DNA from: a virus
Taxonomy: Duplodnaviria > Caudoviricetes
Reading direction: 5' to 3' (one strand)
IMG/VR virus record: IMGVR_UViG_3300025809_001850
Length of the DNA: 64,000 nucleotides
Part shown: positions 8,681 to 56,646 of the stretch, in pieces
Position numbering within the stretch: position 1 is the first letter of the stretch
Layout of the letters: each line of letters opens with the position of its first letter
Made by a program: the position numbers and the translations under genes
The notes under the pieces: model-generated
What the model was told of the DNA's origin: nothing
Databases searched by the model: none
What the model saw: only the letters and a program-made list of their open reading frames with translations

Positions 8681-8707
8681 ATTTAAAACAGAACAGGAAA
8701 CTATAAA

Positions 8708-9991: not shown

Positions 9992-10284
9992 TGCGTTTAT
10001 TTAGCATCATTTGTTTGTTGTTGATGTTTCCGTTGCTATTGCTCGGAAACACCATCTCTGTACACGTAAAGGGTCTTGTATGCCCTTCGTGTGCAATAGG
10101 CATAACAAAGCATCTATTAAAGACCAACAAAATTAAAAAGGTTACTTTGAATGTTCAAACATCATATACTCATATAATACTATTAAAAAACAAAACATTA
10201 TCTGATGTTGAAATAAAAACTGCCATTGAAAATGCAGGTTACGAACTCGGTAAAAAAGGAATTCAGCGAAAATCTAATTCATGA
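9991..10284 (+). CDS. Periplasmic heavy-metal-associated (HMA, MerP/CopZ-like) protein
   Basis: Signal peptide, then VKGLVCPSCA (CxxC) and IENAGY. Confidence 0.85.
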   Translation: MRLFSIICLLLMFPLLLLGNTISVHVKGLVCPSCAIGITKHLLKTNKIKKVTLNVQTSYTHIILLKNKTLSDVEIKTAIENAGYELGKKGIQRKSNS

Positions 10285-11822
10285 ATAATTTAGTGTTTGA
10301 GTTGTACAATTCACTTCGTACAAATTCTTCAAATGTATGTGTTACTGATTATAGTCTTGATAAACCAATTCATATAACCAAAAAGCAAATTTTGATAATG
10401 GCAACTGCGTTGTCAAAAGATATTGCTAAATCTACAAATTCCGATAGAGTTGGTGTTGTAATTCCAAGTTGTGGTGTAGGTATCATTGCTAATGTTGCGG
10501 TATTGCTTGCAGGTAAAATACCTGTGAATTTAAACTTTTCAGTTACAAATGATGTTGCAAGACATTGTTTAGCAAAATCGGGAATCAAGTTGATATTAAC
10601 AGTTTCTGCAATGCGTTCCAAATTTAAAGATTATCCGTTTACTGATAATACAATTGATTGTGATACACAATTAAAAGCATACAAATTTAACAAATGTAAA
10701 TTAATTTCAAATTACATTCTGCATTCACTTCCCACGTTCATTTCACGAAAAATACTGAGCATTTCACCAACCACACAATCAAAAGAATTAGCAGTTTTAT
10801 TTACAAGTGGAAGCAGTGGAAGTCCAAAAGGAGTATCATTATCTCATGCGAATATTCTTAGTAACATTGAGGGTATATGCCAAATGCAAAAGTTTCCACG
10901 TGATAGTAAACTGCTTGCCAATTTACCTTTATTTCATAGTTTTGGATTCACTGTTACAATGTGGTTACCGTTGATTAAGGGCATTCCGATTGTTACAATA
11001 CCAAGTCCCTTGGAAATAAATAAAACCATCACAGCGATTGAAAATGAGCAAGTAAGCATACTTCTAGGAACTCCCACCTTTTTGCGTGGATATCTTAAAA
11101 AAGGATCAAGCAATAAATTCAAAAGTTTGCAATATGTTGTTGCTGGGGCAGAAAAAAGCAATATAGATTTTATTAAACAATGGGAAACTTTAGCAGAATG
11201 CAAATATCTTGAAGGATATGGTCTTACAGAAACATCTCCTGTGATTTCATTGAATACCACCACCCACGGAATCAAACATGGATCAGTTGGAAAGTTGTTA
11301 CCGAATGTAATAGTTAAAACTATACATCCCGAAACAAAACAAGATTTAAGAAGACATGACAGTGGAATATTATGCTTTCAAGGCAACAACATATTCACAG
11401 GATATATCATGGATCGTTCAAAAACCAATTCATCATTTGAAAATGGTTGGTTTGTTACAGGTGATATAGGTAAACTTGATGAAGAAGGATTTCTTTTTAT
11501 TGAAGGAAGATTATCAAGATTTTCCAAAATTGGTGGGGAAATGATTCCACATGAAACAATTGAAGAATGTGCAGTCAAAATACTTGAATGGGAATCAAAC
11601 GAAGCAACCAACTTGGTGGTGGTCGGAAAGCCTCACGCAACAAAGGGTGAAGAATTGATTTTAATTACCACACAATCAATTGATTTTGATAATCTCAGAA
11701 GTAAACTATCCAAGCAACTTGGTAATTTATTCGTTCCCAAAAAACACCAAATCGTAAATGAAATACCTGTGCTTGCCACAGGAAAATTGGATTTACACGC
11801 AATAAAATCACTTGTAAACTAA
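10281..11822 (+). CDS. AMP-binding enzyme, Aas-type acyl-ACP synthetase module lacking the acyltransferase domain
   Basis: LFTSGSSGSPKGV, LPLFHSFG, EGYGLTETSP, TGD, GRLSRFSKIGGEM, GKLD motifs. Confidence 0.9.
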   Translation: MNNLVFELYNSLRTNSSNVCVTDYSLDKPIHITKKQILIMATALSKDIAKSTNSDRVGVVIPSCGVGIIANVAVLLAGKIPVNLNFSVTNDVARHCLAKSGIKLILTVSAMRSKFKDYPFTDNTIDCDTQLKAYKFNKCKLISNYILHSLPTFISRKILSISPTTQSKELAVLFTSGSSGSPKGVSLSHANILSNIEGICQMQKFPRDSKLLANLPLFHSFGFTVTMWLPLIKGIPIVTIPSPLEINKTITAIENEQVSILLGTPTFLRGYLKKGSSNKFKSLQYVVAGAEKSNIDFIKQWETLAECKYLEGYGLTETSPVISLNTTTHGIKHGSVGKLLPNVIVKTIHPETKQDLRRHDSGILCFQGNNIFTGYIMDRSKTNSSFENGWFVTGDIGKLDEEGFLFIEGRLSRFSKIGGEMIPHETIEECAVKILEWESNEATNLVVVGKPHATKGEELILITTQSIDFDNLRSKLSKQLGNLFVPKKHQIVNEIPVLATGKLDLHAIKSLVN

Positions 11823-28251: not shown

Positions 28252-28530
28252 ATGAATCCGTATACTGAGCAGAAAATTTGGGATAATACTTACCTTCGCA
28301 CATTCTCTGCGGCCACTCCTGAAACAGATTTGATATGGCATCTAGATAAAGAAGACCGTGTCATAGAAGCAACTCATTTTACTGATTGGAAATTTCAGTT
28401 TGATGATCAACTTCCGGTGTCGTTGAATAACTTGATTACAATACCAAAAAATAAATTTCATAGAATCATCAAAGGAACAGATGATTGCACAATTAGAATA
28501 ACCAAATATGCAAACGCAGGAATTTCTTGA
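28252..28530 (+). CDS. Cupin-like small protein
   Basis: LIWHLDKEDR...IPKNKFHRIIKG two-motif cupin pattern. Confidence 0.6.
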   Translation: MNPYTEQKIWDNTYLRTFSAATPETDLIWHLDKEDRVIEATHFTDWKFQFDDQLPVSLNNLITIPKNKFHRIIKGTDDCTIRITKYANAGIS

Positions 28531-29464
28531 AGAATTTGAAATCGCATTAGCAAACGAAGTAAATTCGTTTGAAAATAAAGTGCAGTATATGATAAAGTTT
28601 GTTCTTGGTAACAAAGGCAAACGACTTCGTCCGTTGCTTGTTCATAGTTGTTGCAACATCAAGTATCAATCAATGAAACTAGATATTATCAAAGCAAGTG
28701 TGATTGTTGAACTTATTCACATTGCTACTTTGATTCACGATGATGTAATTGATGATGCAACGACTCGTAGAAATAAATCAACATTGCACACTGTTGTTGA
28801 TACCAATGAAGCAATTTTGGTTGGAGATATTTTATTGTCCCACGCACTTGCCATAGCATCATCATTTTCAGATACAATGGTGTGTCGTGAAGTATCTACT
28901 GCAACTAAAGCAACTTGTATTGGTGAAGTCACCCAATCATTCGCACAAAAAAACTATTCAACATCATATACAGAATACGAACAAATTCTTGTGGGCAAAA
29001 CAGGAAAGTTGTTTTCGTGTGCGTGTCGTTTAGGTGCAAAACTTTGCAATGCAGATGAAAGTGTTGTGAGTTATGTTACACGATTTGCAGAAAATCTCGG
29101 AGTTGTATATCAGTTGTATGACGATGCAATTGATGTCTTTGGATCAGAAACGAATTCTCATAAAACATTAAAAACTGATTTGAAAACAAACAAAGTTACT
29201 TTGCCTGTTATTTTGTTGCTTGAAAGTTGTTGCGAAGAAGAACGTAAACCTATAATTGAGATGCTAACAAATTACGATACCAATGCACAAAAACTCAATG
29301 AAATATTCAACGCATACAATATCAAGCAAAAATGTTGTGAAATTATTGCCGACAAACTAACTGACATGAACACTTGCATTGCAAATGTAGGTTATTTACC
29401 AATTGCAGATAAACTAAAAAATATATCAGAAAAGATTTGCAATAAAATCAAATTAACTCTATAA
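28508..29464 (+). CDS. trans-Polyprenyl diphosphate synthase (IspB/HepT-like)
   Basis: GKRLRP, LIHDDVID (FARM), RR, GKTG, YQLYDDAID (SARM). Confidence 0.92.
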   Translation: MQTQEFLEEFEIALANEVNSFENKVQYMIKFVLGNKGKRLRPLLVHSCCNIKYQSMKLDIIKASVIVELIHIATLIHDDVIDDATTRRNKSTLHTVVDTNEAILVGDILLSHALAIASSFSDTMVCREVSTATKATCIGEVTQSFAQKNYSTSYTEYEQILVGKTGKLFSCACRLGAKLCNADESVVSYVTRFAENLGVVYQLYDDAIDVFGSETNSHKTLKTDLKTNKVTLPVILLLESCCEEERKPIIEMLTNYDTNAQKLNEIFNAYNIKQKCCEIIADKLTDMNTCIANVGYLPIADKLKNISEKICNKIKLTL

Positions 29465-38885: not shown

Positions 38886-39620
38886 ATGATTTCACACGAT
38901 ACAATAGATAATCACGCAAAATTAATTGCATTTCAAATTTACGATGCAATTGAAACGAAAAAACAAAATAACGAACATCTAGTTTTGGGACTAGCAACAG
39001 GATCAACTCCAATTCCGTTGTATCAAGAATTGATTCGTTTGCATCAAGAAGCAAATCTTTCTTTTGAAAATGTTTACACATTTAATCTCGATGAATATTG
39101 TGGATTATCAGAAAATCATCCTGAATCTTACAATCACTTTATGCACAAACATTTGTTTAATCATATTGATATTCCCAAGGAAAATATTTTCATTCCAAGT
39201 GGCAAAGTAGAACCTGTGTTTCTTAAAGATTATTGTGTTGGATATGAAAAAGCAATTCAAGAACTTGGAGGTCTTGATATTCAGATTTTAGGAATCGGAA
39301 GAAATGGTCATATTGGATTCAATGAACCAGGAAGTTCAGGTGTAAGTATCACTCGCAAAATAGAACTACATCATGTCACCAAACGAGATGCATCTTCTGC
39401 ATTCGGTGGATTTGATTTAGTTCCGAGTCATGCAATTACAATGGGAATGAAAACAATTTTATCTGCCAAGAAAATTTATTTAATGGCATTTGGAGAAGGC
39501 AAAAAACAAGCAATCAAACAAGCAATTCTCGGTGACATCACCGATGAATTGCCCGCAAGTTTTCTTCAACATCACGACAATGTATCATATTGTTTAGACT
39601 TTAATATAGACACAAAATGA
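38886..39620 (+). CDS. nagB: Glucosamine-6-phosphate deaminase
   Basis: LGLATGSTP, FNLDEY, LGIGRNGHIGFNEPG, AITMG, PAS.LQ.H; promoter TTGACA-17-TAATAT at 38851-38879, ATG at +7. Confidence 0.93.
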   Translation: MISHDTIDNHAKLIAFQIYDAIETKKQNNEHLVLGLATGSTPIPLYQELIRLHQEANLSFENVYTFNLDEYCGLSENHPESYNHFMHKHLFNHIDIPKENIFIPSGKVEPVFLKDYCVGYEKAIQELGGLDIQILGIGRNGHIGFNEPGSSGVSITRKIELHHVTKRDASSAFGGFDLVPSHAITMGMKTILSAKKIYLMAFGEGKKQAIKQAILGDITDELPASFLQHHDNVSYCLDFNIDTK

Positions 39621-43082: not shown

Positions 43083-43303
43083 TTCCTTTAGTTATTATAA
43101 TAAATATTAGTTTTTATAATAAATTGATTTTTTTATGATTTAGTTAATGTTTTTTCATGTTAGATGTAACTTGGTTGTTATCAAACTACATTTTAATGTG
43201 TCAAATTTGAAGAAAATTAAAGTTTTTAACGTATTTATAAAAAAGAGATGAATTGCCAATAGCAAATTCTCATTGATGATAAAAATAATGTATAATAAAA
43301 CAC

Positions 43304-44557
43304 ATGAAACGCAAACAAAATACCAATACTAATGATACAGGTGATACTGGTGATGCTAATGATGCTAATGATACTGGTGATGCTAATGATGCTAATGATA
43401 TGGACAGTGTAAATCACCCAACACCAAATCCAACCAGAATAGATTCTCAGTTGATTGAAGATGACTCTGACATAATGTCATTGAGTGATGTAAGGGACAC
43501 TCATCAACTACACAAATCAGCAATAAAGCGAGTAATTATAACAGGAGTGACAGGTCAAGACGGAAGTTTTATGGCAGATTATTTGTTGAAAAATACAGAT
43601 TGTATGGTGTATGGAGCAGTTCGTAGACTAAGTGTAAAAAATTACACGAACATTCATCATTTGAAACGAGAAGATCGTTTTCAACTTATCAACTTGGATT
43701 TAACTGATGATTATAGTATTCGTGACGCAATCACCGAAATCAAACCTCATTACTTTTTGAACTTTGCGGCTCAAAGTTTTGTGGATGGTTCTTGGGATTA
43801 TCCAATACAAACTTGGGATACAGATGCAACTGCGGTTTTGCATATGCTTGAAAGTATTCGTAAGTTTACTCCTTATTGTAGATTCTATAACGCAGGATCA
43901 AGTGAAGAATTTGGTGATGTTATTACAGATCCACAGAGTGAAGAACATCCACTTAGACCACAAAGTCCATACGGAGCAGCCAAAGCAGCTGCAAGGCATC
44001 TTGTGCGTGTTTATCGTGAGTCATACGATTTATATGCAGTTCAAGGTTGGTTGTTTAATCACGAAGGAACTCGCAGAGGCAAAGAATTTGTAACAAGAAA
44101 AATTACTCATACAATTGCTAAAATTAAACACGCACTTGAAAAGAATAAAAAATATGATGTATTAAAATTGGGAAATTTAGATGCTCAACGAGATTGGACA
44201 GATGCAGAAGACTTTATGTCGGGAGTATGGTTGATGATGAACCAAGATGCTCCTAAAAATTATGTTCTTGCAAGTGGTAAAATGAATAGTGTTCGTGAAT
44301 TTTTACAAGAAACTTTAAAATGTGCAAACATCAAACATAAAATAATTGGTGACGGTGAATATGAAAAGTTTTTAACCGAAGATGATAAACTCATAATGGA
44401 AGTTGATCCTAAATTTTATCGTCCTGCCGAAGTTCATAAATTAAGAGGAGATTGCACTCTTGCAGAAAACGAACTAGGATGGACTCGCATATACAATTTT
44501 AAGAAACTTGTAAAAAGAATGTACGAAAGTGATTATGAGCAACTTAAAAATAGATAA
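43304..44557 (+). CDS. gmd: GDP-mannose 4,6-dehydratase with a low-complexity N-terminal extension
   Basis: ITGVTGQDGS, AAQSFV, AGSSEEFG, PQSPYGAAK, FNHEG.RRG.EFVTRKI, GNLDA.RDW, RPAEV. Confidence 0.95.
   Translation: MKRKQNTNTNDTGDTGDANDANDTGDANDANDMDSVNHPTPNPTRIDSQLIEDDSDIMSLSDVRDTHQLHKSAIKRVIITGVTGQDGSFMADYLLKNTDCMVYGAVRRLSVKNYTNIHHLKREDRFQLINLDLTDDYSIRDAITEIKPHYFLNFAAQSFVDGSWDYPIQTWDTDATAVLHMLESIRKFTPYCRFYNAGSSEEFGDVITDPQSEEHPLRPQSPYGAAKAAARHLVRVYRESYDLYAVQGWLFNHEGTRRGKEFVTRKITHTIAKIKHALEKNKKYDVLKLGNLDAQRDWTDAEDFMSGVWLMMNQDAPKNYVLASGKMNSVREFLQETLKCANIKHKIIGDGEYEKFLTEDDKLIMEVDPKFYRPAEVHKLRGDCTLAENELGWTRIYNFKKLVKRMYESDYEQLKNR
43328..43400 (+). repeat. In-frame 9-bp tandem repeat (aatgat/ggtgat + gct/act)
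   Basis: Encodes NDT-GDT-GDA-NDA-NDT-GDA-NDA-NDM. Confidence 0.8.
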
Positions 44558-45518
44558 AACTAGCAAAATATACGTCGCAGGATCATCCGGAATGGTCGGT
44601 TCTGCGGTTGTTAGAAAATTGCAAGCAGAAAATTATACTAATATAGTAACATCAAGAAGCAAAGATGTAGATTGTCGTGATCAATTTGTTGTAAATGCTT
44701 TTTTTGCAAAACATAAATTTGATGTGGTTGTAATAGCAGCCGCAAAAGTTGGTGGAATTATGGCAAACAACGATTTTCGTGGTGACTTCATTTATGATAA
44801 TCTTCAAATTCAAACGAATTTAATTCATAGTGCAAAAACACACGGTGTTAAAAAACTGATATTTCTTGGATCATCGTGTATATATCCAAAACAAGCACCA
44901 CAACCAATCAAAGAAGAATATTTATTAACTTCAGAACTTGAATATACAAATGAACCTTATGCTATTGCTAAAATAGCAGGATTAAAAATGTGTGAAAGTT
45001 ATTACAAACAATACGATAGCAACTTTTATTCTATTATGCCTTGTAATTTATATGGATACAATGATAACTTTGATTTAAAATCAAGTCACGTGTTACCTGC
45101 ACTAATTCGTAAGTTTCACGAAGCAAAATTGAACAATGATGCAGAAGTAATAATGTGGGGAACAGGAAAACCAAGACGAGAGTTTATGTTTGTTGATGAT
45201 CTTGCAAACACAATTGAACATTGCATTCAAAGCATAAACGCAGACGATGTTTATACTGACACCAAAAGTTGTATGAACTTTGGAAGTGGTGAAGATATTG
45301 AAATTAAAGAACTTGCCGAATTGATCAAACAAATAGTTGGATTTCGTGGTAACATAAAACACGATACCACCAAACCAGACGGAACAATGAAAAAACTTAT
45401 GGATGTTTCATTTGCAAAAACACTTGGACTAGTTACAAAAACTTCATTGAGTGAAGGTTTAAAAAGCACGTACAATTGGTTTTTGCAAAATTATGCTAAC
45501 TCTGATATAAAACTTTAA
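44529..45518 (+). CDS. fcl: GDP-L-fucose synthase
   Basis: AGSSGMVGSA, AAKVGGI, LGSSCIYPK, EPYAIAKIAG, PCNLYG.NDNF...SHVLPALIRK, WGTGKPRREF, KPDG. Confidence 0.95.
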   Translation: MIMSNLKIDKTSKIYVAGSSGMVGSAVVRKLQAENYTNIVTSRSKDVDCRDQFVVNAFFAKHKFDVVVIAAAKVGGIMANNDFRGDFIYDNLQIQTNLIHSAKTHGVKKLIFLGSSCIYPKQAPQPIKEEYLLTSELEYTNEPYAIAKIAGLKMCESYYKQYDSNFYSIMPCNLYGYNDNFDLKSSHVLPALIRKFHEAKLNNDAEVIMWGTGKPRREFMFVDDLANTIEHCIQSINADDVYTDTKSCMNFGSGEDIEIKELAELIKQIVGFRGNIKHDTTKPDGTMKKLMDVSFAKTLGLVTKTSLSEGLKSTYNWFLQNYANSDIKL

Positions 45519-45525
45519 TTGCTCA

Positions 45526-46371
45526 ATGATAAAAACTTATACAACCGAATTGTGCGTATTTATGTTGGCCACCTCGTTTGAATGCAATGAAGGAGAACTA
45601 CAACGTGCAGTTGATTATTATTTGGCCAACATTGAAACTGATTCAAAATTTGATCTTTTAATTTGCCTTGATAATCTTCCAAAAAGAATACGAAGATTTG
45701 ATAGTTGGATTAATAATACCAAACGGCACGAAAATGTAAATGATGTAATTGTTAACAATTTAGAGATCCCCAAAGACGAAAATATTTATATCAAAAATTT
45801 AATTCCTTCGTTTGATTTAAGCAAACTTAATATGGGCAGATCACATGGAATCAATCATTTATTTTATGAAACTCTTGAATATCTGTTTACAACTAAATAC
45901 AAAAACTTTTTATTGTTGGAATGTGATACCAAACCAGTTACATCAAAATGGTATGATGTTTGCGTGAATCATTGCAAAACACACGATTTCTCTATAGCAG
46001 GTAGCAAATACAAAGGAGTTAAACGTGATTTTATTTTATCTAGATATTTCGGACCACACCTCAACGGAGTTGCTATATACAGAAACTGTACACGCACACA
46101 ACAAATGCTCAGAGACTCCAAATCGTTTTTAATAAAATCACTTGCAGATGATCACAAGTTACCCAAATCCAGACGTGTATATCGTGAGTTTATGAATTAT
46201 GATGTTGCGATTTATCTTCACTTAAAACGAATGAGATCATACACAGGATATCATGATACTAATTTCATAACCAATATCAGTTCCCCTGGAAACGAGAACA
46301 CTTCATTGCAATCTGTGCTACATGAATTTCCAGATACTCAAATACTGCATCAAAAAAATCTATACGAATAA
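45526..46371 (+). CDS. Putative GT-A-like glycosyltransferase
   Basis: LLLECD, IAGSKYKG, HLNGVAIY, NYDVAIY; paralogous to the N-terminal half of 46377. Confidence 0.55.
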   Translation: MIKTYTTELCVFMLATSFECNEGELQRAVDYYLANIETDSKFDLLICLDNLPKRIRRFDSWINNTKRHENVNDVIVNNLEIPKDENIYIKNLIPSFDLSKLNMGRSHGINHLFYETLEYLFTTKYKNFLLLECDTKPVTSKWYDVCVNHCKTHDFSIAGSKYKGVKRDFILSRYFGPHLNGVAIYRNCTRTQQMLRDSKSFLIKSLADDHKLPKSRRVYREFMNYDVAIYLHLKRMRSYTGYHDTNFITNISSPGNENTSLQSVLHEFPDTQILHQKNLYE

Positions 46372-46376
46372 TTCAT

Positions 46377-47915
46377 ATGAAGTTCGTTGATAAATTTACT
46401 TATACAAATGAGTTGTGTGTGTTTTATACAACAACACTAACTGAATTTAATAACGGAGCATTAACACGTTGTGTTGATCATTATATGAACAATATTCAAA
46501 CAAACTATAAGTTTGATTTGTTATTTTATTTTGATCAGTTTCCACGCAGGAAACGAAAGTTTTTTCGTGAATTAAATAAATTTAAGAAATACAAAAATAT
46601 AAACAATGTGTACATCATAAACAACGAAATTCCTGATGACGAAAACTTTTATTTCAATCGGAATGTTGAAAAACTAGATTTAAATAAATTTCCCCTTGGA
46701 GGTTCACAAGGAATCAATAGTCACTTTTATATATCAATCAATAATTTGTTTGAACGAAGTTATGAAAATTGTATGTTGTTGGAATCAGACACTTGTTCAG
46801 TAGGCAACGACTGGTTTGATGTGCTTCTTGAGTATTCTGTAAACACAGAGTTTGTAATTGCTGGTAGCAAGTATAAGGGTAGAAACAAAGAAGTTGTATT
46901 TAAAGAACACTACGGTGGCCACCACATAAATGGAGTTGCATTGTATAAAAACAATGATACAACGAAAAAGTTGATCCGAGCATCATATCAATTTTTGATA
47001 AATTCATTGCGAAAGGATTTCACAAAGTGTAAACGTCACAGACGATGTAACGGGTGTTTGAATTATGATGTAGCAATTTACTTGTATGCAAAAAAGAAAA
47101 ATTTATCGCATTTACTTCATGATACAAATTTCATTACAAATTTCAGATCAGATGATGATAATGACACCGAACTAAAAACAATAATGCTAAAGTATCCGGA
47201 AACACGAATTGTACACAAAAAAAATTTATATGATGAAGTTGATATAAAATCAACAATTAAAATATTAAAAGAGAATTCAGTATATAGAATTGCTGATTTA
47301 TTTTATATGGATGGTAACCGATGGGAGAAAGATAGAAGTAAAGTAATACAAAGTGAAGAATATAGTGATACCATATTGCACGATTATATGTTAAATAAAA
47401 ACAATGAATTTGATTACGATACATTTAAATCTATCACCCTAAAACATTCCGAAAAGTATGACCTAAAACCCAACGAAGATGATTTAGTTTTTCATTTACG
47501 ACTCGGAGATGTATTTGATATTAATGGTGAAACTAGAATATACAACAGAGCAGATTGGTCTTATCTTCAGTATAAAGTATTTTTTAGAAAAAACAGAGAA
47601 TTTTTAGAAACATTAAATAAGGTAAAAGTAGTTACTGCATTGCACTTTGGTTCTGATGAGTTAACAGGTGATTTCTATTATACAGATAATTACTATAACG
47701 AAAGCATGAAATTTTTTGATTATTTTTGTGGACGTTTACACGACTTTGGTTGTAGTGTTGATGTAATATCAAATGAAAATATTGATAAAGATATATGCTA
47801 CATGATGCAATCAACACACTTTGTACCTGGACTTACAAAGTTATCTACATTGATTTCAACGTGTATAGAAAATGATGCTAAAATATATCGTGAACCTATA
47901 CAAAAATACATTTAA
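46377..47915 (+). CDS. Bifunctional glycosyltransferase-like: GT-A-like N-half plus fucosyltransferase-like (HxRxGD) C-half
   Basis: N-half paralogous to 45526; C-half LVFHLRLGD and DKDICYMMQSTHFVP resemble GT11/GT23-type motifs. Confidence 0.6.
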   Translation: MKFVDKFTYTNELCVFYTTTLTEFNNGALTRCVDHYMNNIQTNYKFDLLFYFDQFPRRKRKFFRELNKFKKYKNINNVYIINNEIPDDENFYFNRNVEKLDLNKFPLGGSQGINSHFYISINNLFERSYENCMLLESDTCSVGNDWFDVLLEYSVNTEFVIAGSKYKGRNKEVVFKEHYGGHHINGVALYKNNDTTKKLIRASYQFLINSLRKDFTKCKRHRRCNGCLNYDVAIYLYAKKKNLSHLLHDTNFITNFRSDDDNDTELKTIMLKYPETRIVHKKNLYDEVDIKSTIKILKENSVYRIADLFYMDGNRWEKDRSKVIQSEEYSDTILHDYMLNKNNEFDYDTFKSITLKHSEKYDLKPNEDDLVFHLRLGDVFDINGETRIYNRADWSYLQYKVFFRKNREFLETLNKVKVVTALHFGSDELTGDFYYTDNYYNESMKFFDYFCGRLHDFGCSVDVISNENIDKDICYMMQSTHFVPGLTKLSTLISTCIENDAKIYREPIQKYI

Positions 47916-47943
47916 CAAAATATATCTTTTAATTTTACATACA

Positions 47944-48804
47944 ATGAAACCATTACACCAACAACAAAATATTCCGTGCTTTTATCATGTTCCAAAGAAC
48001 GCAGGAACATATGTAACAAGCATCATGTTTTTGTATATTAGATTATTTAAACAAAAGTATACAAACTGGAATTCATTTGGTAAAGAAACTGGTAGAAATA
48101 TCGTAATACATAACGATAATAAAGAAATCGCACGAATAATCGCAGGTGATCCAAATTTTATATGCAATGAAAGTTTAATATTCAAACGAGGTGTAATTGA
48201 AGATGATACACATTATACAATCAATTTAAATGAATGTTCACATGATGCATTTGTTAACCTGAATATTTTTTCAATAATTATAGAAGCAGACGGATTTGTA
48301 TATCACGATCAAATCAAAAAGTTTTTTGAAAAATATAATTTAATTAATTTTATGATATTACGTGATCCGATTAAACGAGCAGTATCTTTTTTTGATTACA
48401 TAAATTCAGATAAAGCAAAACACGAACCAACTTACGGAATTATTCCAAATAAATTTTCAGAATATGCTAAAAGTGATTACACAGAAGATAGTTGGTTGAT
48501 ACGACAATTCAGCAAAGTGCAAAATTCTGTGGGAATTACTTTAAAAAATTATGTAGATGCATTTCACATTTTAAAAAAATTTAAGATATGTGACATCAAA
48601 AACACAAATAAATTTATAGATGATATATTCAAAAAATATCTGAATCTGAATTTAACAGAAAAACAAAAACAACAAAAAACTTGGGACATAATTTACAATT
48701 CTAAATCAAAAAGTTCTACAATAATTGACGAAGAATCACACAAACTATTGCAACAAAGAATGAAATACGATATTGAATTATACAACAAATTGTTATCATG
48801 CTAA
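47944..48804 (+). CDS. Sulfotransferase-like protein
   Basis: FYHVPKNAGT (5'-PSB), ILRDPIKRAVSFF (3'-PB), YDIELY end. Confidence 0.75.
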   Translation: MKPLHQQQNIPCFYHVPKNAGTYVTSIMFLYIRLFKQKYTNWNSFGKETGRNIVIHNDNKEIARIIAGDPNFICNESLIFKRGVIEDDTHYTINLNECSHDAFVNLNIFSIIIEADGFVYHDQIKKFFEKYNLINFMILRDPIKRAVSFFDYINSDKAKHEPTYGIIPNKFSEYAKSDYTEDSWLIRQFSKVQNSVGITLKNYVDAFHILKKFKICDIKNTNKFIDDIFKKYLNLNLTEKQKQQKTWDIIYNSKSKSSTIIDEESHKLLQQRMKYDIELYNKLLSC

Positions 48805-48965
48805 TATCACACAAACATAAGTTCATCACATTTGATATTCCAAAGACTGGAACAACCTCTATTAACAATGCTATTGCTCGGGGTGATATTTTGGAAAAGC
48901 ATGATTTTAAAGTTCAGATGTCACACAGAGTCATTGAGTATTTCGGATATAAATTTGGAGCATAA
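48798..48965 (+). pseudogene. Internally deleted sulfotransferase mini-gene (55 aa)
   Basis: MLISHKHKFITFDIPKTGTTS...IEYFGYKFGA keeps the family N- and C-termini but lacks the RNP core. Confidence 0.75.
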
Positions 48966-48968
48966 GAA

Positions 48969-49520
48969 ATGATAAGTCATAAACATAAATTCATATTACT
49001 ACACGCAGGTAAGTGTGCGGGAAGTTCGGTCATAAATTGTCTTAATAATATTATCGATGAACCTAAAATTGAACTTCCTTGCAATCATCCAACTTTGTTA
49101 CAACTTCAGGAACTTGTTACAAAATCTAATCATAACATAAACGAGTATAAGTTAATTTGTATGGTGAGAAATCCATTTGATAGAATGGTTTCATGGTATA
49201 ATCATGCGGTGTATAGAGTTAAAACATTCTCCGGTTCATTTGAAGATTTTTGTGATGACAGACTTAGTGGTACATCCGAAAACTTAATACCCCCCTATAA
49301 CAAATGCAATCATGTTATTCGGTTTGAACATTTACACGATGATTTTGATAAATTTCTTGATATTATAGGTCTTCCTGCTCATAAATTACCCCACGAAAAT
49401 AAAAGTATGAGTAAACAAAAAATTCATTACTCAGTCTTACATACAGAAAAAACGAAACAAATTGTATCTGAGTATTTTTCGTCAGTTATTGAAATGTTCA
49501 ACTATAAGTTTGGGGAATAA
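48969..49520 (+). CDS. Sulfotransferase family 2 protein
   Basis: MISHKHKFILLHAGKCAGSS; VRNPFDRMVSWY; IRFEHL. Confidence 0.8.
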   Translation: MISHKHKFILLHAGKCAGSSVINCLNNIIDEPKIELPCNHPTLLQLQELVTKSNHNINEYKLICMVRNPFDRMVSWYNHAVYRVKTFSGSFEDFCDDRLSGTSENLIPPYNKCNHVIRFEHLHDDFDKFLDIIGLPAHKLPHENKSMSKQKIHYSVLHTEKTKQIVSEYFSSVIEMFNYKFGE

Positions 49521-49522
49521 AA

Positions 49523-50173
49523 ATGCTAATATCACACAAACATAAATTCATCACAATTGATATTCCAAAAACTGCTACAAGGTCTTTGCGTGAAACTTTA
49601 TTGCCACAAAATGTAATTGATATTGTAGGTGATCCAAATTTTAATGCAGATTTTTACCAACATGGAACTGCAATGCAATGTTCTGAATCGTTGCAAAAAT
49701 TAAATAAAAACTTTTCAGATTATTTTTCATTTGTTATTGTTCGCAATCCGTGGGATCGGTATTATAGTTTTTTTAAATACTTTAAAGAATATGCGGAAAA
49801 ATATAAAAACAAAGACGCAAGTATAAAATGGAATACACTTGAAATTACTCAAGGTAAACTGTGCGAAGAATTATTCGCGAATAAATCAGATGAAATTGTA
49901 TTGCGAAACATCATAATAAATAATGAATGTCAAAGTGGTTATTATGCAAATGAAAAAAATGAAATTATGGTATCTCATATAGCAAAATTTGAAAATCTAA
50001 ACAAAGAATTTGAATTGCTATGCAATCAAGTAAATGTAAATTATTCACCGTTATTCCACGGAAATAAAAGTGTTATAAAAAGTAGTTATTATAATATTTA
50101 TACCAAGGAAACTATCAATTTAGTCGCAGAAAAAGAAAAGAATGTAATACAATTAAAAGGATACACATATTAA
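49523..50173 (+). CDS. Sulfotransferase family 2 protein
   Basis: IDIPKTATRS; VRNPWDRYYS; KFENL. Confidence 0.8.
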   Translation: MLISHKHKFITIDIPKTATRSLRETLLPQNVIDIVGDPNFNADFYQHGTAMQCSESLQKLNKNFSDYFSFVIVRNPWDRYYSFFKYFKEYAEKYKNKDASIKWNTLEITQGKLCEELFANKSDEIVLRNIIINNECQSGYYANEKNEIMVSHIAKFENLNKEFELLCNQVNVNYSPLFHGNKSVIKSSYYNIYTKETINLVAEKEKNVIQLKGYTY

Positions 50174-50920
50174 ATGAAAATTTACACTTACTATCAGAAT
50201 ATAAATCACGATAAACAACCTGAATTAATTGATTTATGGAAACTAAGTTGGTCTCGACAAGGTTACGAACCAATTGTTCTAAATTTAGAAGATGCAAAAA
50301 AGCATTCTTATTTTGAAACTCTTGATACAGAAATGCGTAAAATTTTCAAAGAAATTACAAACAAGGAAATTTCTGATTACGGAATGAGTTGTTGGTTTCG
50401 TTGGTTGGCATATGCAACCCAAGAAGACGAAAAGTTTTATGTTTCTGATTATGATGCAATCAATATTAATTTTCCAATCACAGAACCTAGCAATCAACTT
50501 CATTTAATGGATAATGCTTGTCCCTTTCTTGCAAGTGGAACACCAAAACAATTTGAAAATTTATGCAAAGCATTTGTGGAACTTAGCAATCAAAGAATTG
50601 ATATTTTAAAACAACAAGCAGATCATTATCATGATCAAGAATTTTTTCAATATAATTTTATTCCAAATTTTAATGATTCGTATGAAGATCTAAGAAATCA
50701 ACATGGCATTTTAATGACACGAACTAGATCACACGAAGGTGGAATTGGGGATTGGTATCTTCCCAATGATAAAAAAAATCCAAGTCCAACAACTTATGGA
50801 GTTTATCATGTTTCTCACAGTAATTGTAGCGTATACAAAACCACAAATACACAAGATAGTTCACTTTCGGCCGAAGAACTCAGAATTTATTTAATAAAAG
50901 ATTTACTTAAAATAAAATGA
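50174..50920 (+). CDS. Putative GT-A glycosyltransferase, copy A
   Basis: LWKLSWSRQGYEPIVL, WFRWLAY, SDYD (DxD). Confidence 0.6.
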   Translation: MKIYTYYQNINHDKQPELIDLWKLSWSRQGYEPIVLNLEDAKKHSYFETLDTEMRKIFKEITNKEISDYGMSCWFRWLAYATQEDEKFYVSDYDAININFPITEPSNQLHLMDNACPFLASGTPKQFENLCKAFVELSNQRIDILKQQADHYHDQEFFQYNFIPNFNDSYEDLRNQHGILMTRTRSHEGGIGDWYLPNDKKNPSPTTYGVYHVSHSNCSVYKTTNTQDSSLSAEELRIYLIKDLLKIK

Positions 50921-51389
50921 AAATTTACACTTACTATCAGAATATAAATCACGATAAACAACCTGAATTAATTGATTTATGGAAACTAAGTTGGTCTCGA
51001 CAAGGTTACGAACCAATTGTTCTAAATTTAGAAGATGCAAAAAAGCATTCTTATTTTGAAACTCTTGATACAGAAATGCGTAAAATTTTCAAAGAAATTA
51101 CAAACAAGGAAATTTCTGATTACGGAATGAGTTGTTGGTTTCGTTGGTTGGCATATGCAACCCAAGAAGACGAAAAGTTTTATGTTTCTGATTATGATGC
51201 AATCAATATTAATTTTCCAATCACAGAACCTAGCAATCAACTTCATTTAATGGATGCCCATGTACCATGTTTTGCAAGTGGATCACCAAAGCAATTTGAA
51301 AATTTATGCAAAGCATTTGTGGAACTTAGCAATCAAAGAATTGATATTTTAAAACAACAAGCAGATCATTATCATGATCAAGAATTTTT
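50174..51389 (+). repeat. Direct repeat, offset 743 bp: 339 bp identical + 36 bp variable + 98 bp identical
   Basis: 50174-50512 = 50917-51255 and 50549-50646 = 51292-51389 by direct comparison. Confidence 0.92.
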
Positions 51390-51564
51390 CTTGTACAACT
51401 CGGAGGAATTAAAGAATCATCACAATATCGTTATGACACGTGATAGAAATAAATTATTATCACCATACATTAAGGATTGTTTGACTCCGATTATTCACTT
51501 TAGCCATTTTAGGTGTAAAACTAACTCTAATAGAATAAAATTAATTAAGGAAATCTTATCATGA
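50917..51564 (+). CDS. Putative GT-A glycosyltransferase, copy B
   Basis: First 113 aa identical to copy A; different C-terminus. Confidence 0.6.
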   Translation: MKIYTYYQNINHDKQPELIDLWKLSWSRQGYEPIVLNLEDAKKHSYFETLDTEMRKIFKEITNKEISDYGMSCWFRWLAYATQEDEKFYVSDYDAININFPITEPSNQLHLMDAHVPCFASGSPKQFENLCKAFVELSNQRIDILKQQADHYHDQEFFLYNSEELKNHHNIVMTRDRNKLLSPYIKDCLTPIIHFSHFRCKTNSNRIKLIKEILS

Positions 51565-52139
51565 TACTATCACACAAATATAAATTCGTCTGCCTAAATC
51601 CACCAAAAACTGGATCAGGATTTAGAGAACAACTATTAAAGGAATGTGCTGATGTAAGCATAATCACACATGAACCTTTAAAACTAAGACATTGGAATTC
51701 AACTCAAGCATCCAACTACATTAAAAGTATAAACAAAGACCCCAATGATTATTATTGGTTTACTTTTGTTAGAAATCCGTGGGAACGAATGATATCTTGG
51801 GTTAATATGAGAAAAAATCATATATTAAATGGTAAAAATTCGGAAAATATTGATAGTAACAAGTTTATTGTTGAAACCCTTGAAGAACATCAGTTTAAAG
51901 ATTACATATATCGTGATGGTAAACTATTAGAGTTTATTGGTTCACTTGAAAACATCACAGAAGATCTTAATTTTGTGTTAAACAAATTAAATATTAATAT
52001 ACCTATTAGCACTCGAAAAGATAAATATAAAAAAGATTTTAAAGATGATATTCGTGACAACATGAGTCGGAAAACAATAGAACTAATTAGCAATGTAGAA
52101 AAAGAAGTTATAGAAATGAAAAAGTATAAATTTAAATGA
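51561..52139 (+). CDS. Sulfotransferase family 2 protein
   Basis: LNPPKTGSG; VRNPWERMISW; GSLENI. Confidence 0.8.
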   Translation: MILSHKYKFVCLNPPKTGSGFREQLLKECADVSIITHEPLKLRHWNSTQASNYIKSINKDPNDYYWFTFVRNPWERMISWVNMRKNHILNGKNSENIDSNKFIVETLEEHQFKDYIYRDGKLLEFIGSLENITEDLNFVLNKLNINIPISTRKDKYKKDFKDDIRDNMSRKTIELISNVEKEVIEMKKYKFK

Positions 52140-52789
52140 TTAACATAAATGCATACAACTACCACTTTTCTATTGGTTCTAATTGTCGTGTGGCCACTTC
52201 TTTGATCGAATTGAATTTGAGAAAATTTTCAACTAATTTTGATTGGGGATTTTTCACTCCAAAAAGTTTTTACTTAGCATATATAGACAATTTTCAAGAG
52301 TTAATCAATTTCTCTCACAACAAATTGTCTCAAAGTGAAAATACATATCAACATATTATTGACAACTGGATTTCAAAATACAATTTTAAACCTTATATGT
52401 TTAGATTTGCACATCGTTCTCATAAAAACGAAGATACCGTAAGAAGACGAGCAATTAGATTAAAAGATACCATTGAAAATGGTAACAATAAAATATTGTT
52501 CATATATAATCATATACCAATACACCTCATGAGTGACAGAGCTCATAAAAAATGGTCAAACAAACTCCTCAAAGAAGAAGGGGAAGATATTTTTGACTTA
52601 AAATATTTACAATTATTAAAAGACGTATTACCCGACAATGTAGATCTCTTGTTATTGCATTATGAAGAATTGAATATGAAATTTAAAAATGTGTATTGTC
52701 AATTTATAAATTATGAAGAATCCGAAGTGAAACATAAAGACTGGGATCAACAGTTAATTATTAAACACATTAAATCGCTTTTAAATTAA
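52136..52789 (+). CDS. Putative papain-like (DUF1796-type) protein
   Basis: FSIGSNCRVA...STNFDW...FAH...RRAIRL pattern. Confidence 0.55.
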   Translation: MININAYNYHFSIGSNCRVATSLIELNLRKFSTNFDWGFFTPKSFYLAYIDNFQELINFSHNKLSQSENTYQHIIDNWISKYNFKPYMFRFAHRSHKNEDTVRRRAIRLKDTIENGNNKILFIYNHIPIHLMSDRAHKKWSNKLLKEEGEDIFDLKYLQLLKDVLPDNVDLLLLHYEELNMKFKNVYCQFINYEESEVKHKDWDQQLIIKHIKSLLN

Positions 52790-52824
52790 AAAATATGCTT
52801 TCTTAAAGAACGAAAAAAACAAAA

Positions 52825-53535
52825 ATGAAAAAGAGGCCAAAAAATACAGACGATTGTTTATACAACTTAGTGGATATAATAAAATTTAACCATTGTGCTT
52901 GTATGGATGTGTGGAAAGAGGACAGTATAGCGAGAATGTATTATGAACAATCATCAAGTCCCAAGAAGAACTTTAACTCCTCATGGTGGGTGGATTTTGA
53001 TTGTTTACATAAAATTGTTCAAGAAAAAACTAAAAATAACGAACAGCCGTCGGGTGATGTATTAACAATACACGTAAGACTTGGTGATTTATTAGTACCT
53101 TCCTTGATACATACAGTTCCTGATGTTAACCAATATGAAAATTTAATCAAGAGAGCTGTTGTAGAACACGGTATTGTCAAATGCGATATTTATTACGGTA
53201 ATCATGTGGGTAAGTTTGAAAATGAGTCGCAACAATACATACACAAATTAATAAAAATTATTAAAAAATTAGGTCTTGAACATGAATTTATATCCAAATC
53301 GGTAGATGAAGATTTTTGTTCTTTGGCTACAAGCAAACACTACCTGCCCTCTATCAGAGGATTTTCGTGGTTGACTGGTACAATCAATCCGAATAATGTT
53401 ATTTGGGACATAAACAAAGGTAAAGAGTTTTCTTGGGATGTAGTTGCAAAAACTGGAAGATTCGTAACTGAAAATGTTGGTAAATACCTTAAAGGAATTG
53501 AGTATCAACGAAAATTAAATAAACAAAAAAAATAA
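52825..53535 (+). CDS. Fucosyltransferase-like (HxRxGD) protein
   Basis: LTIHVRLGD; DEDFCSLATSKHYLPSIRGFSW; paralog of the 46377 C-half. Confidence 0.6.
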   Translation: MKKRPKNTDDCLYNLVDIIKFNHCACMDVWKEDSIARMYYEQSSSPKKNFNSSWWVDFDCLHKIVQEKTKNNEQPSGDVLTIHVRLGDLLVPSLIHTVPDVNQYENLIKRAVVEHGIVKCDIYYGNHVGKFENESQQYIHKLIKIIKKLGLEHEFISKSVDEDFCSLATSKHYLPSIRGFSWLTGTINPNNVIWDINKGKEFSWDVVAKTGRFVTENVGKYLKGIEYQRKLNKQKK

Positions 53536-53603
53536 TGAAAAACATCACAAACCTTGCCCAGTGGATGGTGTACAAAAGACCATAGTATGGAAGGATATTG
53601 AAT

Positions 53604-54203
53604 ATGATAAGTCATAAACATAAATTTATTTTCATACACATTAATAAAACAGGTGGATCAAGCATTGAGAGGGCCATTGACCCGAGTATTCCTACGCACA
53701 ACAATAAAACTAACCGAGTCTGCCCGAGCGCAACTGTTGGTAACACATATCACGAGACTAAACATTTCCCAGCTAGGAAAATGTGGGCGAACCACCCGGA
53801 TTGTTTTGACCTGTATTTTAAATTTACATTCGTAAGAAACCCGTGGGCTACAGAAGCATCACTTTACAATTGGTTCAAGTTTATTGGAGTTGCCAGAGGT
53901 ACTAAACTCTCATTTAAAGAGTTTTTATATCAGAGAGTTAAGTTAAAAAGAATGGGATTTAGAATAATGTTAGGTAATAGCAAACAATATTCTCTTATGG
54001 ATTACATCGGGCGGTTTGAAAACCTACAAGAAGACTTCAACATAATCTGTGACAAAATTGGAATTCCACAACAACAACTTCCACACAAAAACAAAATAAA
54101 ACACAAACATTACACCGAATACTACGATGATGAAACTCGTCAAATTGTTGCGGAAAAGTATGCAGAAGACATCGAGTATTTCGGGTATAAATTTGGAGAA
54201 TAA
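53604..54203 (+). CDS. Sulfotransferase family 2 protein
   Basis: MISHKHKFIFIHINKTGGSS; VRNPW; GRFENL; YTEYYDDETRQIVAEKYAEDIEYFGYKFGE. Confidence 0.85.
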   Translation: MISHKHKFIFIHINKTGGSSIERAIDPSIPTHNNKTNRVCPSATVGNTYHETKHFPARKMWANHPDCFDLYFKFTFVRNPWATEASLYNWFKFIGVARGTKLSFKEFLYQRVKLKRMGFRIMLGNSKQYSLMDYIGRFENLQEDFNIICDKIGIPQQQLPHKNKIKHKHYTEYYDDETRQIVAEKYAEDIEYFGYKFGE

Positions 54204-54206
54204 ATT

Positions 54207-54872
54207 ATGAAAAAGTATTACGGACAAAAAGGACAAGATAAATGGGTTATTAACGAAGTGTTGAACGAGAAAAAAAACGGATTCTTTTTAGATCTAGCTG
54301 CAACAAATGGGATTGAACTTAGTAATACATTTATTTTGGAAAAAAAATATAACTGGACTGGAATTGCAATAGAACCCAATCCAAATTTTTACAAACAATT
54401 AGTTAAAAATAGAAATTGTATTACAGAAAATCATGTGGTTTCCAATTGTCATGAAAAGGTTAAAGTTAGAATTGATAACGGTGTCGGTGGTGGAATTGTA
54501 GCAGACGATACAGATAATTCTATGTTAATTCGTGGAGAACAATTAAAGAAGGAGCAATGTAAAATTATAGAGATGGAATCAGTTTTGCTACAAGATATCC
54601 TTGATAAACATAACGCTCCGAAAGAAATAGATTATTGGTCACTCGACATCGAAGGTTCAGAAGAAAGAGTGATTAGTAGTTTTGATTTCTCCAAGTATGA
54701 GTTTGGATGCATAACAATAGAAAGGCCAACACCTCTCTGTAACAAAATACTACAAAATGCAGGATATGTGTTTGTTAAGAATTGTGATAATGATTCCTTC
54801 TATGTGTCTCATAAATACTCAAAGGACTTAAAATTACAACCTTTTGAGCAGATACCCAAAAAAAGGTGCTAA
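54207..54872 (+). CDS. FkbM-family SAM-dependent methyltransferase
   Basis: [42 protein letters not shown]. Confidence 0.85.
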
Positions 54873-54888
54873 ACTTATAGAACAACAC

Positions 54889-55008
54889 ATGATAATATCA
54901 CATAAACATAAACACTACACCGAATATTACGATGAAGAAACAAAATCTATCGTTGCGGAAAAATACGCAAAAGACATTGAGTATTTTAATTATGAATTTG
55001 GTAAGTAA
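54889..55008 (+). pseudogene. Sulfotransferase mini-gene (39 aa), N-terminus fused directly to C-terminus
   Basis: [39 protein letters not shown]; the junction lies in the HKHK motif present at both ends of 53604. Confidence 0.8.
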
Positions 55009-56019: not shown

Positions 56020-56646
56020 ATGTCGAGCAAAATTTTTTTAGTATACAGTGGCTTATTGATTTTCACTAATATACTATTTTCTCGTATTTCTCCTCAAATG
56101 TCCGACTTTTTATGCGGATGTGAATATTGCGAAACCGTTGATCGTCATTCACCTTTGAATATTGGATATCATTTTTCACGATGTCATTCGTGGAAAAAAT
56201 CGTGGGCAAAATCAAGAAACGCAATGATGAATACTCAGAAACCCGATGTGGGCATTCCAGTTAAAGATACTTTACCCGATCATTCGAGAAAAATTTTTGG
56301 GGAAAACAATAATGATGATAATAGTAATAACATTCATAAAAAGGATACTACATTAAAAGAACCCAATATGAATACTATAGATGATATATATAATGATTAT
56401 CAATGGAGATACATAGAAACACAAGGATGGACATATTCTACTACACATCAAAGTACAACAACTACAGATGGATGGCTATATCGTGAAGATTTAGGATGGG
56501 TATGGACTTTCACAGAATCGAGGAAATTTTTATATAGTGAACAGTATGGATGGTTTTATTCAATGCGGTATAACGACCGTAATTTGTTATATTATTACGA
56601 CCGTAGATATTGGTTGTATGCGTATGATTTTTGGTGGAAGAAATAG
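56020..56646 (+). CDS. Secreted protein with C-terminal GWLY-x3-LGW repeat domain
   Basis: Signal-like N-terminus; GWLYREDLGWVW and FLYSEQYGWFY, same domain as the ORF at 3-1865. Confidence 0.7.
   Translation: MSSKIFLVYSGLLIFTNILFSRISPQMSDFLCGCEYCETVDRHSPLNIGYHFSRCHSWKKSWAKSRNAMMNTQKPDVGIPVKDTLPDHSRKIFGENNNDDNSNNIHKKDTTLKEPNMNTIDDIYNDYQWRYIETQGWTYSTTHQSTTTTDGWLYREDLGWVWTFTESRKFLYSEQYGWFYSMRYNDRNLLYYYDRRYWLYAYDFWWKK

Follow-up and report, generated by a model that had tools for sequence, protein, structure and literature searches.

The presence, in the DNA of a tailed phage, of genes for nucleotide-sugar synthesis, glycosyl transfer, sulfation and methylation, all packed into one island, raises the question of what these enzymes make and where their product is displayed. 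The island spans positions 43304-55008 of a 64,000-nucleotide stretch (hereafter, the window) of the IMG/VR virus record IMGVR_UViG_3300025809_001850 (Caudoviricetes). It consists of 15 intact open reading frames (ORFs), all located on the + strand, plus two short gene remnants, and the intergenic gaps across it range from -44 to +62 nt. A first-pass annotation of this DNA had described one co-oriented locus of about 12 kb, and each of the genes that it listed was found again in its place on the + strand. Its core proposal also held, i.e., a phage-borne pathway able to make guanosine diphosphate (GDP)-L-fucose, accompanied by fucosyltransferase-fold domains, sulfotransferases of the 3'-phosphoadenosine 5'-phosphosulfate (PAPS) type and a sugar-type O-methyltransferase. 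As for the product, we see about an even chance that what the enzymes assemble in the cytoplasm is a heteroglycan that contains fucose and is both sulfated and O-methylated, virion proteins being its most likely site.

The first gene of the island, gmd (43304-44557, + strand), encodes a GDP-mannose 4,6-dehydratase (GMD) of the extended short-chain dehydrogenase/reductase type. The protein matches the Pfam family GDP_Man_Dehyd (PF16363) across the full profile (E-value 1.6e-102) and solved GMDs with E-values of up to 3e-77; its match to TIGR01472 (3.5e-97, 325.7 bits) scores under the curated cut-off of 415, suggesting that it is a diverged member of the family. Its N-terminus bears a 75-residue low-complexity extension absent from the solved GMDs, and the 5' end of the gene contains six copies of a 9-nt tandem repeat (43317-43397) encoding a D-T/A-G/N-rich stretch of this extension, although translation may in fact begin at a Met further downstream. 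The following gene, fcl (44529-45518, + strand), encodes a GDP-L-fucose synthase, i.e., a GDP-4-keto-6-deoxymannose 3,5-epimerase/4-reductase (GMER), matching NCBIfam GDPFucSynFcl (NF047922) with an E-value of 8.5e-136 and 452 bits, slightly under the cut-off of 500, and the Escherichia coli GMER (1BSV) with an E-value of 2.4e-96. In the alignment with 1BSV, residues S107, C109, Y136, K140 and H179 of the E. coli enzyme, comprising the Ser-Tyr-Lys triad and the Cys109/His179 epimerisation pair, are all identical in Fcl. The idea that Fcl might be a His-to-Asn variant ("GPHDNF") was rejected, as His179 corresponds in the same alignment to the conserved H of "SSHV". The identification of both genes in the first-pass annotation is thus upheld by family profiles, solved-structure matches and catalytic residues. 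Judging from their sequences, the two genes form a complete and intact GDP-fucose branch, whose products would convert GDP-mannose into GDP-L-fucose.

A donor of this kind calls for fucosyltransferases, and two candidate domains carrying the motif HxRxGD had been pointed out. The first is the C-terminal half (residues ~300-512) of a 512-residue two-domain protein (46377-47915, + strand), whose N-terminal half (~1-285) is a GT8-like domain of the GT-A fold; the second is a stand-alone protein of 236 residues (52825-53535, + strand). The motif reads HLRLGD in the former and HVRLGD in the latter, and the two domains are homologous (BLASTP 8e-7). Their joint profile collected 868 representatives at 50% identity, mostly of 200-250 residues, and an alignment of 66 family representatives shows no variation at H83, R85 and D88 and almost none at G87. 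The motif corresponds to motif I (HxRxxD) of the fucosyltransferase superfamily (GT11/GT23/GT65/GT68), whose Arg, at the start of a Rossmann-like domain, binds the donor. When the predicted structure of the 52825 product was compared with 48,161 Protein Data Bank (PDB) representatives, the five top matches were all GDP-fucose transferases (Z scores: POFUT2, 10.2; POFUT1, 9.1; FUT8, 8.5; human POFUT2, 8.4; NodZ, 8.1), generic Rossmann folds reaching a Z of 7.8 at most; Foldseek searches of PDB and Swiss-Prot agree with this fold. In the Atlas, 78 of the 100 feature matches of the 52825 product fell inside the set bearing Glyco_transf_11, and the shape search led to a GT11-bearing viral cluster (template modelling score, TM, 0.59). 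In BFVD it lies closest to Megaviridae proteins that are uncharacterised, with viral GT11 and alpha-1,2-FucT entries coming next.

Neither the 52825 nor the 46377 product has a match in Pfam, NCBIfam or PHROGs. Sequence and profile searches of PDB with 52825, its family, 46377, 50174 and 53598 gave nothing meaningful, and one match, allo-1, was discarded as a coiled-coil artefact. Since the curated models do not recognise the family, the 46377 C-half and 52825 are best described as predicted fucosyltransferase-fold enzymes of an unnamed, virus-rich family, and not as members of GT11. The presence of the motifs, the homology of the domains and the match of the fold to GDP-fucose transferases agree with what had been proposed for them; moreover, the adjacency of gmd and fcl supports GDP-fucose as their donor in this island, where they probably add fucose.

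Four GT-A-like domains had also been proposed, and the evidence stands for two of them, i.e., the N-half of the 46377 product and its single-domain paralogue encoded at 45526-46371 (+ strand), which share 43-44% identity. Metagenomic homologues of the 46377 product have the identical two-domain build, and its N-half also has single-domain homologues, the 45526 product included. The AlphaFold model of the N-domain has a predicted local distance difference test (pLDDT) mostly above 90, and with it Foldseek retrieved XXYLT1, glycogenin and LARGE1 at about 1e-6 (TM by target ~0.5). The invariants of this family are E136-x-D138, AGSKYKG and H183, the first and the last agreeing with the acidic metal-binding motif and the downstream His of retaining GT8-like enzymes. 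No match to Pfam Glyco_transf_8 was obtained for these domains even at E = 10, and the best IMG/VR relative is 34% identical.

The two remaining domains belong to a tandem pair of putative glycosyltransferases, of 248 (50174-50920) and 215 (50917-51564) residues, both on the + strand, for which only weak leads were found. The two proteins are 72% identical (BLASTP), with the first 113 residues identical and the C-terminal third diverged, and at the DNA level a 300-nt direct repeat, 100% identical, lies at the starts of the two paralogues (50169-50468 and 50912-51211). A single copy is present in strain L028, where 50174 is absent, suggesting that the pair is the outcome of a recent duplication or gene conversion; the direct repeat likely causes assembly breaks. 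In the Atlas, the 50174 features matched clusters of Gb3_synth, Gly_transf_sug and Caps_synth (0.89-0.93), with a GT32-like lead, and a DYD motif is readable in both proteins. Searches of Pfam, PHROGs and PDB sequences with the pair gave no match, and the hhalign comparison of the 50174 family with the GT8-like family revealed no relation.

The sulfating part of the island comprises five sulfotransferase genes, all on the + strand and related to Pfam Sulfotransfer_2. Four of them pass its gathering cut-off of 22 bits, with scores of 30.4-50.4: 48969-49520 (183 residues; 6.7e-12, and 1.3e-5 with Sulfotransfer_1), 49523-50173 (216 residues; 9.7e-9), 51561-52139 (192 residues; 5.4e-7) and 53598-54203 (201 residues; 4.4e-13), the last starting with TTG or with an ATG two codons later. 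The fifth (47872-48804, 310 residues) falls just under it (21.1 bits, 3.9e-4) and is a divergent, probable sulfotransferase carrying PKNAGT and RDPIKRAVS. A 5'-phosphosulfate loop of the PKxG(S/T) type occurs in all five, and the 3'-phosphate motif RNPxxRxxS or RDPxxRxxS in four, the second Arg being missing from the 53598 product. The five enzymes with PAPS-binding motifs of the first-pass annotation are hence recovered, with these two reservations, and so are, on the basis of translations and alignment, its two deleted mini-copies. The first of these (48798-48965, + strand, 55 residues; repeat families D4, D6 and D8) is an internally deleted remnant in which an N-terminus with PKTGTTS is fused to the C-terminal end YFGYKFG, and it is retained in L026-L029. 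The second (54889-55008, + strand, 39 residues) has MIISHKHK followed directly by the 31 C-terminal residues encoded by a gene like 53598, being 79% identical to the ends of 53598; its deletion falls between two HKHK-type stretches (N-terminal SHKHK and C-terminal KHKHY).

As already remarked in the first-pass annotation, the window seems to lack a PAPS synthase, and the ORFs tested here did not bring one to light. It had been suggested that PAPS must be supplied either by the host or from elsewhere in the genome, and the second of these proved right when the sequence upstream was reconstructed by contig walking, through assemblies sharing exact window proteins and gene order (L018, L021, L022/L023 and L024, of which L018, L021 and L023 are all on one 261-kb contig from the Joint Genome Institute, JGI). 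In L024 (3014-5855), an adenosine 5'-phosphosulfate kinase (193 residues), a CysD-type PAPS_reduct protein (301 residues) and a CysN-type GTP_EFTU GTPase (445 residues) are followed by an epimerase. The position of these cysC-cysD-cysN genes, relative to the start of the window, is about -43.6 to -40.8 kb, and no match to a reductase was recorded among their neighbours in L024. On this gene content, the phage encodes its own synthesis of PAPS, the genes being some 85 kb upstream from the island.

The last intact member of the set of modifying enzymes is an S-adenosylmethionine-dependent methyltransferase of the FkbM family (54207-54872, + strand). Its match to Methyltransf_21 (PF05050; 9.5e-14, 52.3 bits against a cut-off of 22.7) bears out the original assignment, and TIGR01444 is matched at 6.8e-9, with 36.3 bits, slightly under its 37.7. 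The island also contains a DUF1796 gene (52136-52789, + strand; PF08795, 3.5e-5), annotated in that family as a "putative papain-like peptidase", whose product resembles DUF1796/DUF1919 clusters, mostly viral, in the Atlas (features 0.95, structure TM 0.67). A second DUF1796 copy is present in strain L026 (L026:10477-11094). "Papain-like proteins" occur inside the glycogene cluster of Cotonvirus, where they have been called unrelated to glycosylation (PMC9614988).

On the whole, the following scheme can be proposed. GDP-L-fucose formed by Gmd and Fcl would be used by the two HxRxGD domains, whereas the two GT8-like domains, and perhaps the tandem pair 50174/50917, would add other sugars, giving a heteroglycan and not a pure fucan. 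The chain might then be decorated by the five sulfotransferases, with PAPS from the phage cysC-cysD-cysN genes, and by the FkbM methyltransferase. A fucan had been envisaged by the first-pass annotation; this part of its interpretation is not supported, since at least three unrelated glycosyltransferase families are present in the locus, which argues for a heteroglycan rather than for a fucose polymer. A fucan of the fucoidan type would have a backbone of alpha-1,3/1,4-linked L-fucose bearing sulfate esters. All of the locus proteins are predicted to be soluble (no 19-residue segment exceeds 1.6 on the Kyte-Doolittle scale), and no Pfam match to a priming transferase, flippase, polymerase or exporter was found among them, suggesting that the chain most likely grows directly on its acceptor, in the cytoplasm. 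If the analogy with chloroviruses, Megavirinae and mycobacteriophages holds, this acceptor would be represented by the phage's own virion proteins, either fibres or capsid decoration. Elsewhere in the window, a trans-type polyprenyl synthetase is encoded at 28508-29464 (PF00348, 2.1e-59); being trans-type and not of the undecaprenyl (cis) type, it is not an obvious glycan carrier.

Several observations weigh against this scheme. No acceptor was identified, the glycan on the virion is predicted from genes, and no recognisable structural gene adjoins the locus in this window. PHROGs gave no match for eight ORFs of the relative L001, checked for large fibre-like genes beside the island. The search for lipid-carrier and export genes covered the locus only. 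The 52825 model is of moderate quality (mean pLDDT 68) and that of the 46377 C-half has low confidence, while the Pfam GT11 model (PF01531) misses 52825 and detects 1 of 66 relatives, at 0.0039. In L001, L003 and L026, the HxRxGD proteins have homologues that lack gmd and fcl as neighbours (those in L001 and L003 are close homologues of both proteins, surrounded by different sugar genes, and neither gmd nor fcl lies within 10 kb of them), so that GDP-fucose is a putative donor for them. The 50174/50917 proteins are glycosyltransferases, perhaps of the GT32 type, in a putative sense, the language-model leads and the DYD motif being what points to them, and the glycan-related role that the recurrence of DUF1796 in viral glycan loci suggests is likewise putative. 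Finally, as regards timing, the T4 late motif TATAAATA is not enriched, with 11 matches against 8 expected and none of them 5' of the locus on the + strand, which gives no indication either way, and the sole promoter-like site 5' of gmd is of the sigma-70 type, which would suggest early expression. The latter site (TTCTCA-18-TATAAT, 43267-43296, + strand) comes from a consensus scan and is a lead only, sigma-70-like matches not being enriched in the region; its -10 box ends 7 nt 5' of the gmd ATG, leaving no room for a Shine-Dalgarno sequence, and the start of gmd is possibly leaderless.

An early promoter would fit a different role, in which the lipopolysaccharide (LPS), capsule or S-layer glycans of the infected cell are modified via the lipid-carrier and export machinery of the host, thus blocking superinfection or stopping the progeny from sticking to debris. 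Such a remodelling of the envelope has been proposed for the LPS-type genes of cyanomyoviruses, and Gmd homologues are indeed common in these T4-like marine phages (e.g., P-SSM2), which carry gmd together with other sugar genes, as the island does. The Gmd proteins are, however, only 41-43% identical, and the rest of the island matches none of 50,697 phage records, against which the island DNA gave no megablast match. The locus lacks any membrane-anchored enzyme, as well as the priming transferase, flippase, polymerase and exporter mentioned above; its families are common mainly to viruses, among them Nucleocytoviricota with self-glycosylated particles, and a lytic T4-like phage would be expected to gain less from seroconversion than a temperate one. 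Envelope remodelling is therefore considered possible but rather unlikely, even though the variability of the island between strains, described below, would fit any surface structure.

Both conservation and modularity emerge when independent assemblies are compared. Four of them (L027, L029, L030 and L031) maintain the window gene order at 99.5-100% identity, whereas in L028, besides the single copy of the tandem pair, two other genes replace 47872. A more distant strain, L026, whose flanks are 75-90% identical, is without 43122-47953 (gmd, fcl and both GT8-like genes), and other genes replace 47872, the 53598 sulfotransferase and the FkbM gene. Its central block (corresponding to 47954-53577) is nonetheless 98.5% identical to the window, and the difference between this value and that of the flanks suggests a recent cassette exchange. 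Contig joints tell the same story: a joint 43121->47967 in run X12 matches the L026 junction, and a joint 48820->53604 in X9 and X11 corresponds to a deletion between sulfotransferase 5' ends. A joint 43121->55437 in X9, skipping the whole island, was not counted, one of its sides being only 20 nt long. Of the six assemblies compared, five begin or terminate within the island or at its edge, as expected for a hypervariable region. At least three modules can be recognised, i.e., A (43122-47953), B (47954-53577) and C (53598-55008), which strains acquire, lose and exchange through recombination, in part via the repeated sulfotransferase ends; this exchange fits a diversifying selection on a surface structure. 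As the sulfotransferase block is present in strains without gmd and fcl (L026 and the joint 43121->47967), sulfation is not tied to fucose, and the single fucose-sulfation pathway of the first-pass annotation is not supported.

The same data might be read in a less constructive way, the island being a recombination hotspot loaded with partly dead paralogues and having no coherent product. The two truncated sulfotransferase remnants, the very recent tandem duplication and the presence/absence variation between strains would all agree with such decaying cargo. On the other hand, the 15 ORFs are intact and tightly coupled, their catalytic motifs are kept, and the sequence is preserved both in the independent assemblies (99.5-100%) and, for module B, across diverged backbones (98.5%). 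Furthermore, a marine metatranscriptome library contains short contigs on gmd, two sulfotransferases and other locus genes, which is compatible with transcription of the locus, although the evidence is weak and DNA carry-over is possible. Decay without a product is hence regarded as highly unlikely.

Gene sets of this kind may be widespread in environmental phages. Among 13 other IMG/VR contigs with a GT8-like homologue, nine (L005-L012 and L014) have one to three Sulfotransfer_2 homologues within 10 kb. In a 206-kb contig (L003:1-10702), homologues of 50174 (62%) and 52825 (69%) adjoin a sulfotransferase, and their neighbours encode an RmlD-type reductase, a UDP-galactopyranose mutase, a cytidylyltransferase, an acetyltransferase and a QueF-like protein, indicating that the sugar chemistry of the island differs between lineages.

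Concerning the phage itself, the window is AT-rich (33% GC), the locus having 30.6% GC against 33.5% in the remaining window. It contains, on the + strand, homologues of RIIA (phrog_612, 3.8e-103) and of the ATP-dependent DNA ligase (phrog_114, 2.2e-80), and a dihydrofolate reductase (DHFR) gene lies directly 3' of the island, at 55490; ten locus or neighbouring ORFs, including all of the island's ORFs of unknown family, have no match in PHROGs. At the protein level, even the closest cultured phages are only about 40% identical. Proteins identical to those of the window are found in up to 119 blocks of a public assembly collection; the contigs bearing them reach 261 kb (JGI), 481 kb and 493 kb, and those of relatives 566-570 kb. 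In coastal samples the phage can be deeply covered (depth about 90 in run X9). The hallmark genes, the wide occurrence and contigs of about 0.5 Mb show that the source is a very large, abundant and uncultured marine phage of the T4-like type. The "moraphage" lineage (PMC12619734), which is without the T4-like machinery, is a different group.

A T4-like backbone with RIIA and ligase, and the DHFR gene directly downstream of the island, bring to mind a further function for the transferases, namely the addition of sugars to modified bases of the phage DNA. T-even phages glucosylate hydroxymethylcytosine, and phage glycosyltransferases adding diverse glycans to DNA are known (cited in PMC12619734). 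In the locus, no hydroxymethylase or base-modifying gene was found with Pfam. In addition, the five carbohydrate-type sulfotransferases, the FkbM O-methyltransferase and the fucosyltransferase-fold enzymes have, to our knowledge, no precedent in DNA modification, which makes this function exceedingly unlikely.

A more specific reading of the virion glycan, raised in the first-pass annotation, was also considered, in which it would mimic algal fucoidan and so lure the polysaccharide-capture proteins of a Verrucomicrobiota host that degrades fucoidan. The combination of fucose, several sulfotransferases and O-methylation does correspond to a fucoidan-like chemistry, and a hint of the host comes from a group of genes at 6551-11822, encoding a PSCyt2/PSD1 (DUF1549/DUF1553) protein of 709 residues, a DUF1501 protein of 427 residues (9.2e-112), a small HMA-like ORF and an AMP-binding enzyme of 513 residues. 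PSCyt2/PSD1 and DUF1501 gene sets are typical of Planctomycetota and Verrucomicrobiota. This set is maintained at 70% identity or more across the phage clade, in contigs of up to 570 kb. However, the best 120 homologues of the DUF1501 gene are all within that clade; the single match to a cellular genome, at 37%, is to Roseimaritima, i.e., to a planctomycete. Moreover, the several unrelated glycosyltransferase families argue for a heteroglycan, and some strains retain the sulfotransferase block without gmd and fcl. Fucoidan mimicry with a Verrucomicrobiota bait is thus very improbable and amounts to pure speculation. A broader version, in which a hypervariable, sulfated, fucose-bearing glycocalyx with swapped cassettes imitates algal polysaccharides, so that foraging hosts (possibly of the Planctomycetota-Verrucomicrobiota) capture the virion, is very improbable as well.

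The glycosylation of virion proteins, in turn, has parallels in systems already described. The chlorovirus PBCV-1 encodes GMD and GMER for GDP-L-fucose, multidomain glycosyltransferases and methyltransferases (PMC9614988, PMC5408694), and in Moumouvirus australiensis, Cotonvirus and Tupanvirus genes of sulfate metabolism and "papain-like" proteins are likewise part of the glycogene clusters, the presence of sulfated glycans in giant-virus fibrils being only predicted (PMC9614988). The island shares with chloroviruses and Megavirinae its own nucleotide-sugar synthesis, soluble and multidomain glycosyltransferases, methyltransferases and an arrangement in clade-specific clusters, and the 52825 and DUF1796 families are common to Nucleocytoviricota. 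It differs from the giant-virus systems in belonging to a tailed phage of bacteria, in being known here from its genes, and in having five dedicated sulfotransferases in one 12-kb island, with cysC-cysD-cysN placed separately.

In mycobacteriophages, capsid and tail proteins are modified in the cytoplasm by glycosyltransferases of the phage (Freeman et al. 2023, as cited in PMC12619734), and a cytoplasmic action of phage-encoded glycosyltransferases is proposed here as well; the mycobacteriophages carry one to a few such enzymes, without the genes for nucleotide-sugar synthesis, sulfation and methylation found in the island. The closest purely chemical parallel is offered by the Nod factor of Sinorhizobium fredii NGR234, whose synthesis involves fucosylation (nolK-noeL-nodZ), methylation of the fucose (noeI) and sulfation (noeE) (PMC4881576). 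The two gene sets have in common GDP-fucose synthesis, methylation and sulfation, and the GT23 fucosyltransferase NodZ is one of the five structures that best match 52825, which, unlike NodZ, has no sequence-level membership and matches no Pfam family. The role that cysC-cysD-cysN would have here is played in rhizobia by NodPQ, which supplies PAPS. The Nod-factor acceptor, though, is a secreted lipochitooligosaccharide, and single enzymes modify it, instead of five sulfotransferases and several glycosyltransferase families.

Glycosylation by viruses is therefore already established in giant viruses of eukaryotes and in a few mycobacteriophages, whereas a phage with its own GDP-fucose and PAPS synthesis and a battery of sulfotransferases was not found described: the full-text literature search returned no paper on phage-encoded glycan sulfotransferases or on a phage system for GDP-fucose plus sulfation. 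The analysis also brings out a large unannotated family with a fucosyltransferase fold, common to phages and Megaviridae, and links the DUF1796 "papain-like" proteins to viral glycan loci. If the particles do bear sulfated glycans, this would have a bearing on adsorption and host range, on the stickiness of virions to marine gels and particles, and on the accounting of viral carbon and sulfur; in that case, the exchange of the sulfotransferase block between diverged strains would parallel, in a phage, the hypervariable glycan islands that marine bacteria possess.

Some other genes of the window deserve mention. An 819-residue protein made up of DUF285 and BspA-type leucine-rich repeats (5.4e-141) is encoded at 17022-19481 and is possibly a surface or adhesin-like protein; a related gene, longer and strain-variable, is present in L022 and L023. 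About 3.7 kb upstream of the island, the ORF at 38886-39620 belongs to the glucosamine-6-phosphate isomerase/6-phosphogluconolactonase family (2.7e-24). Just 3' of the DHFR gene, the ORF at 56020-56646 encodes a protein of 208 residues whose N-terminus has a hydrophobic segment (maximum hydropathy 1.78) and whose C-terminus is repeated and rich in Trp and Tyr (GW..Y-type repeats); it may be an envelope-binding protein.

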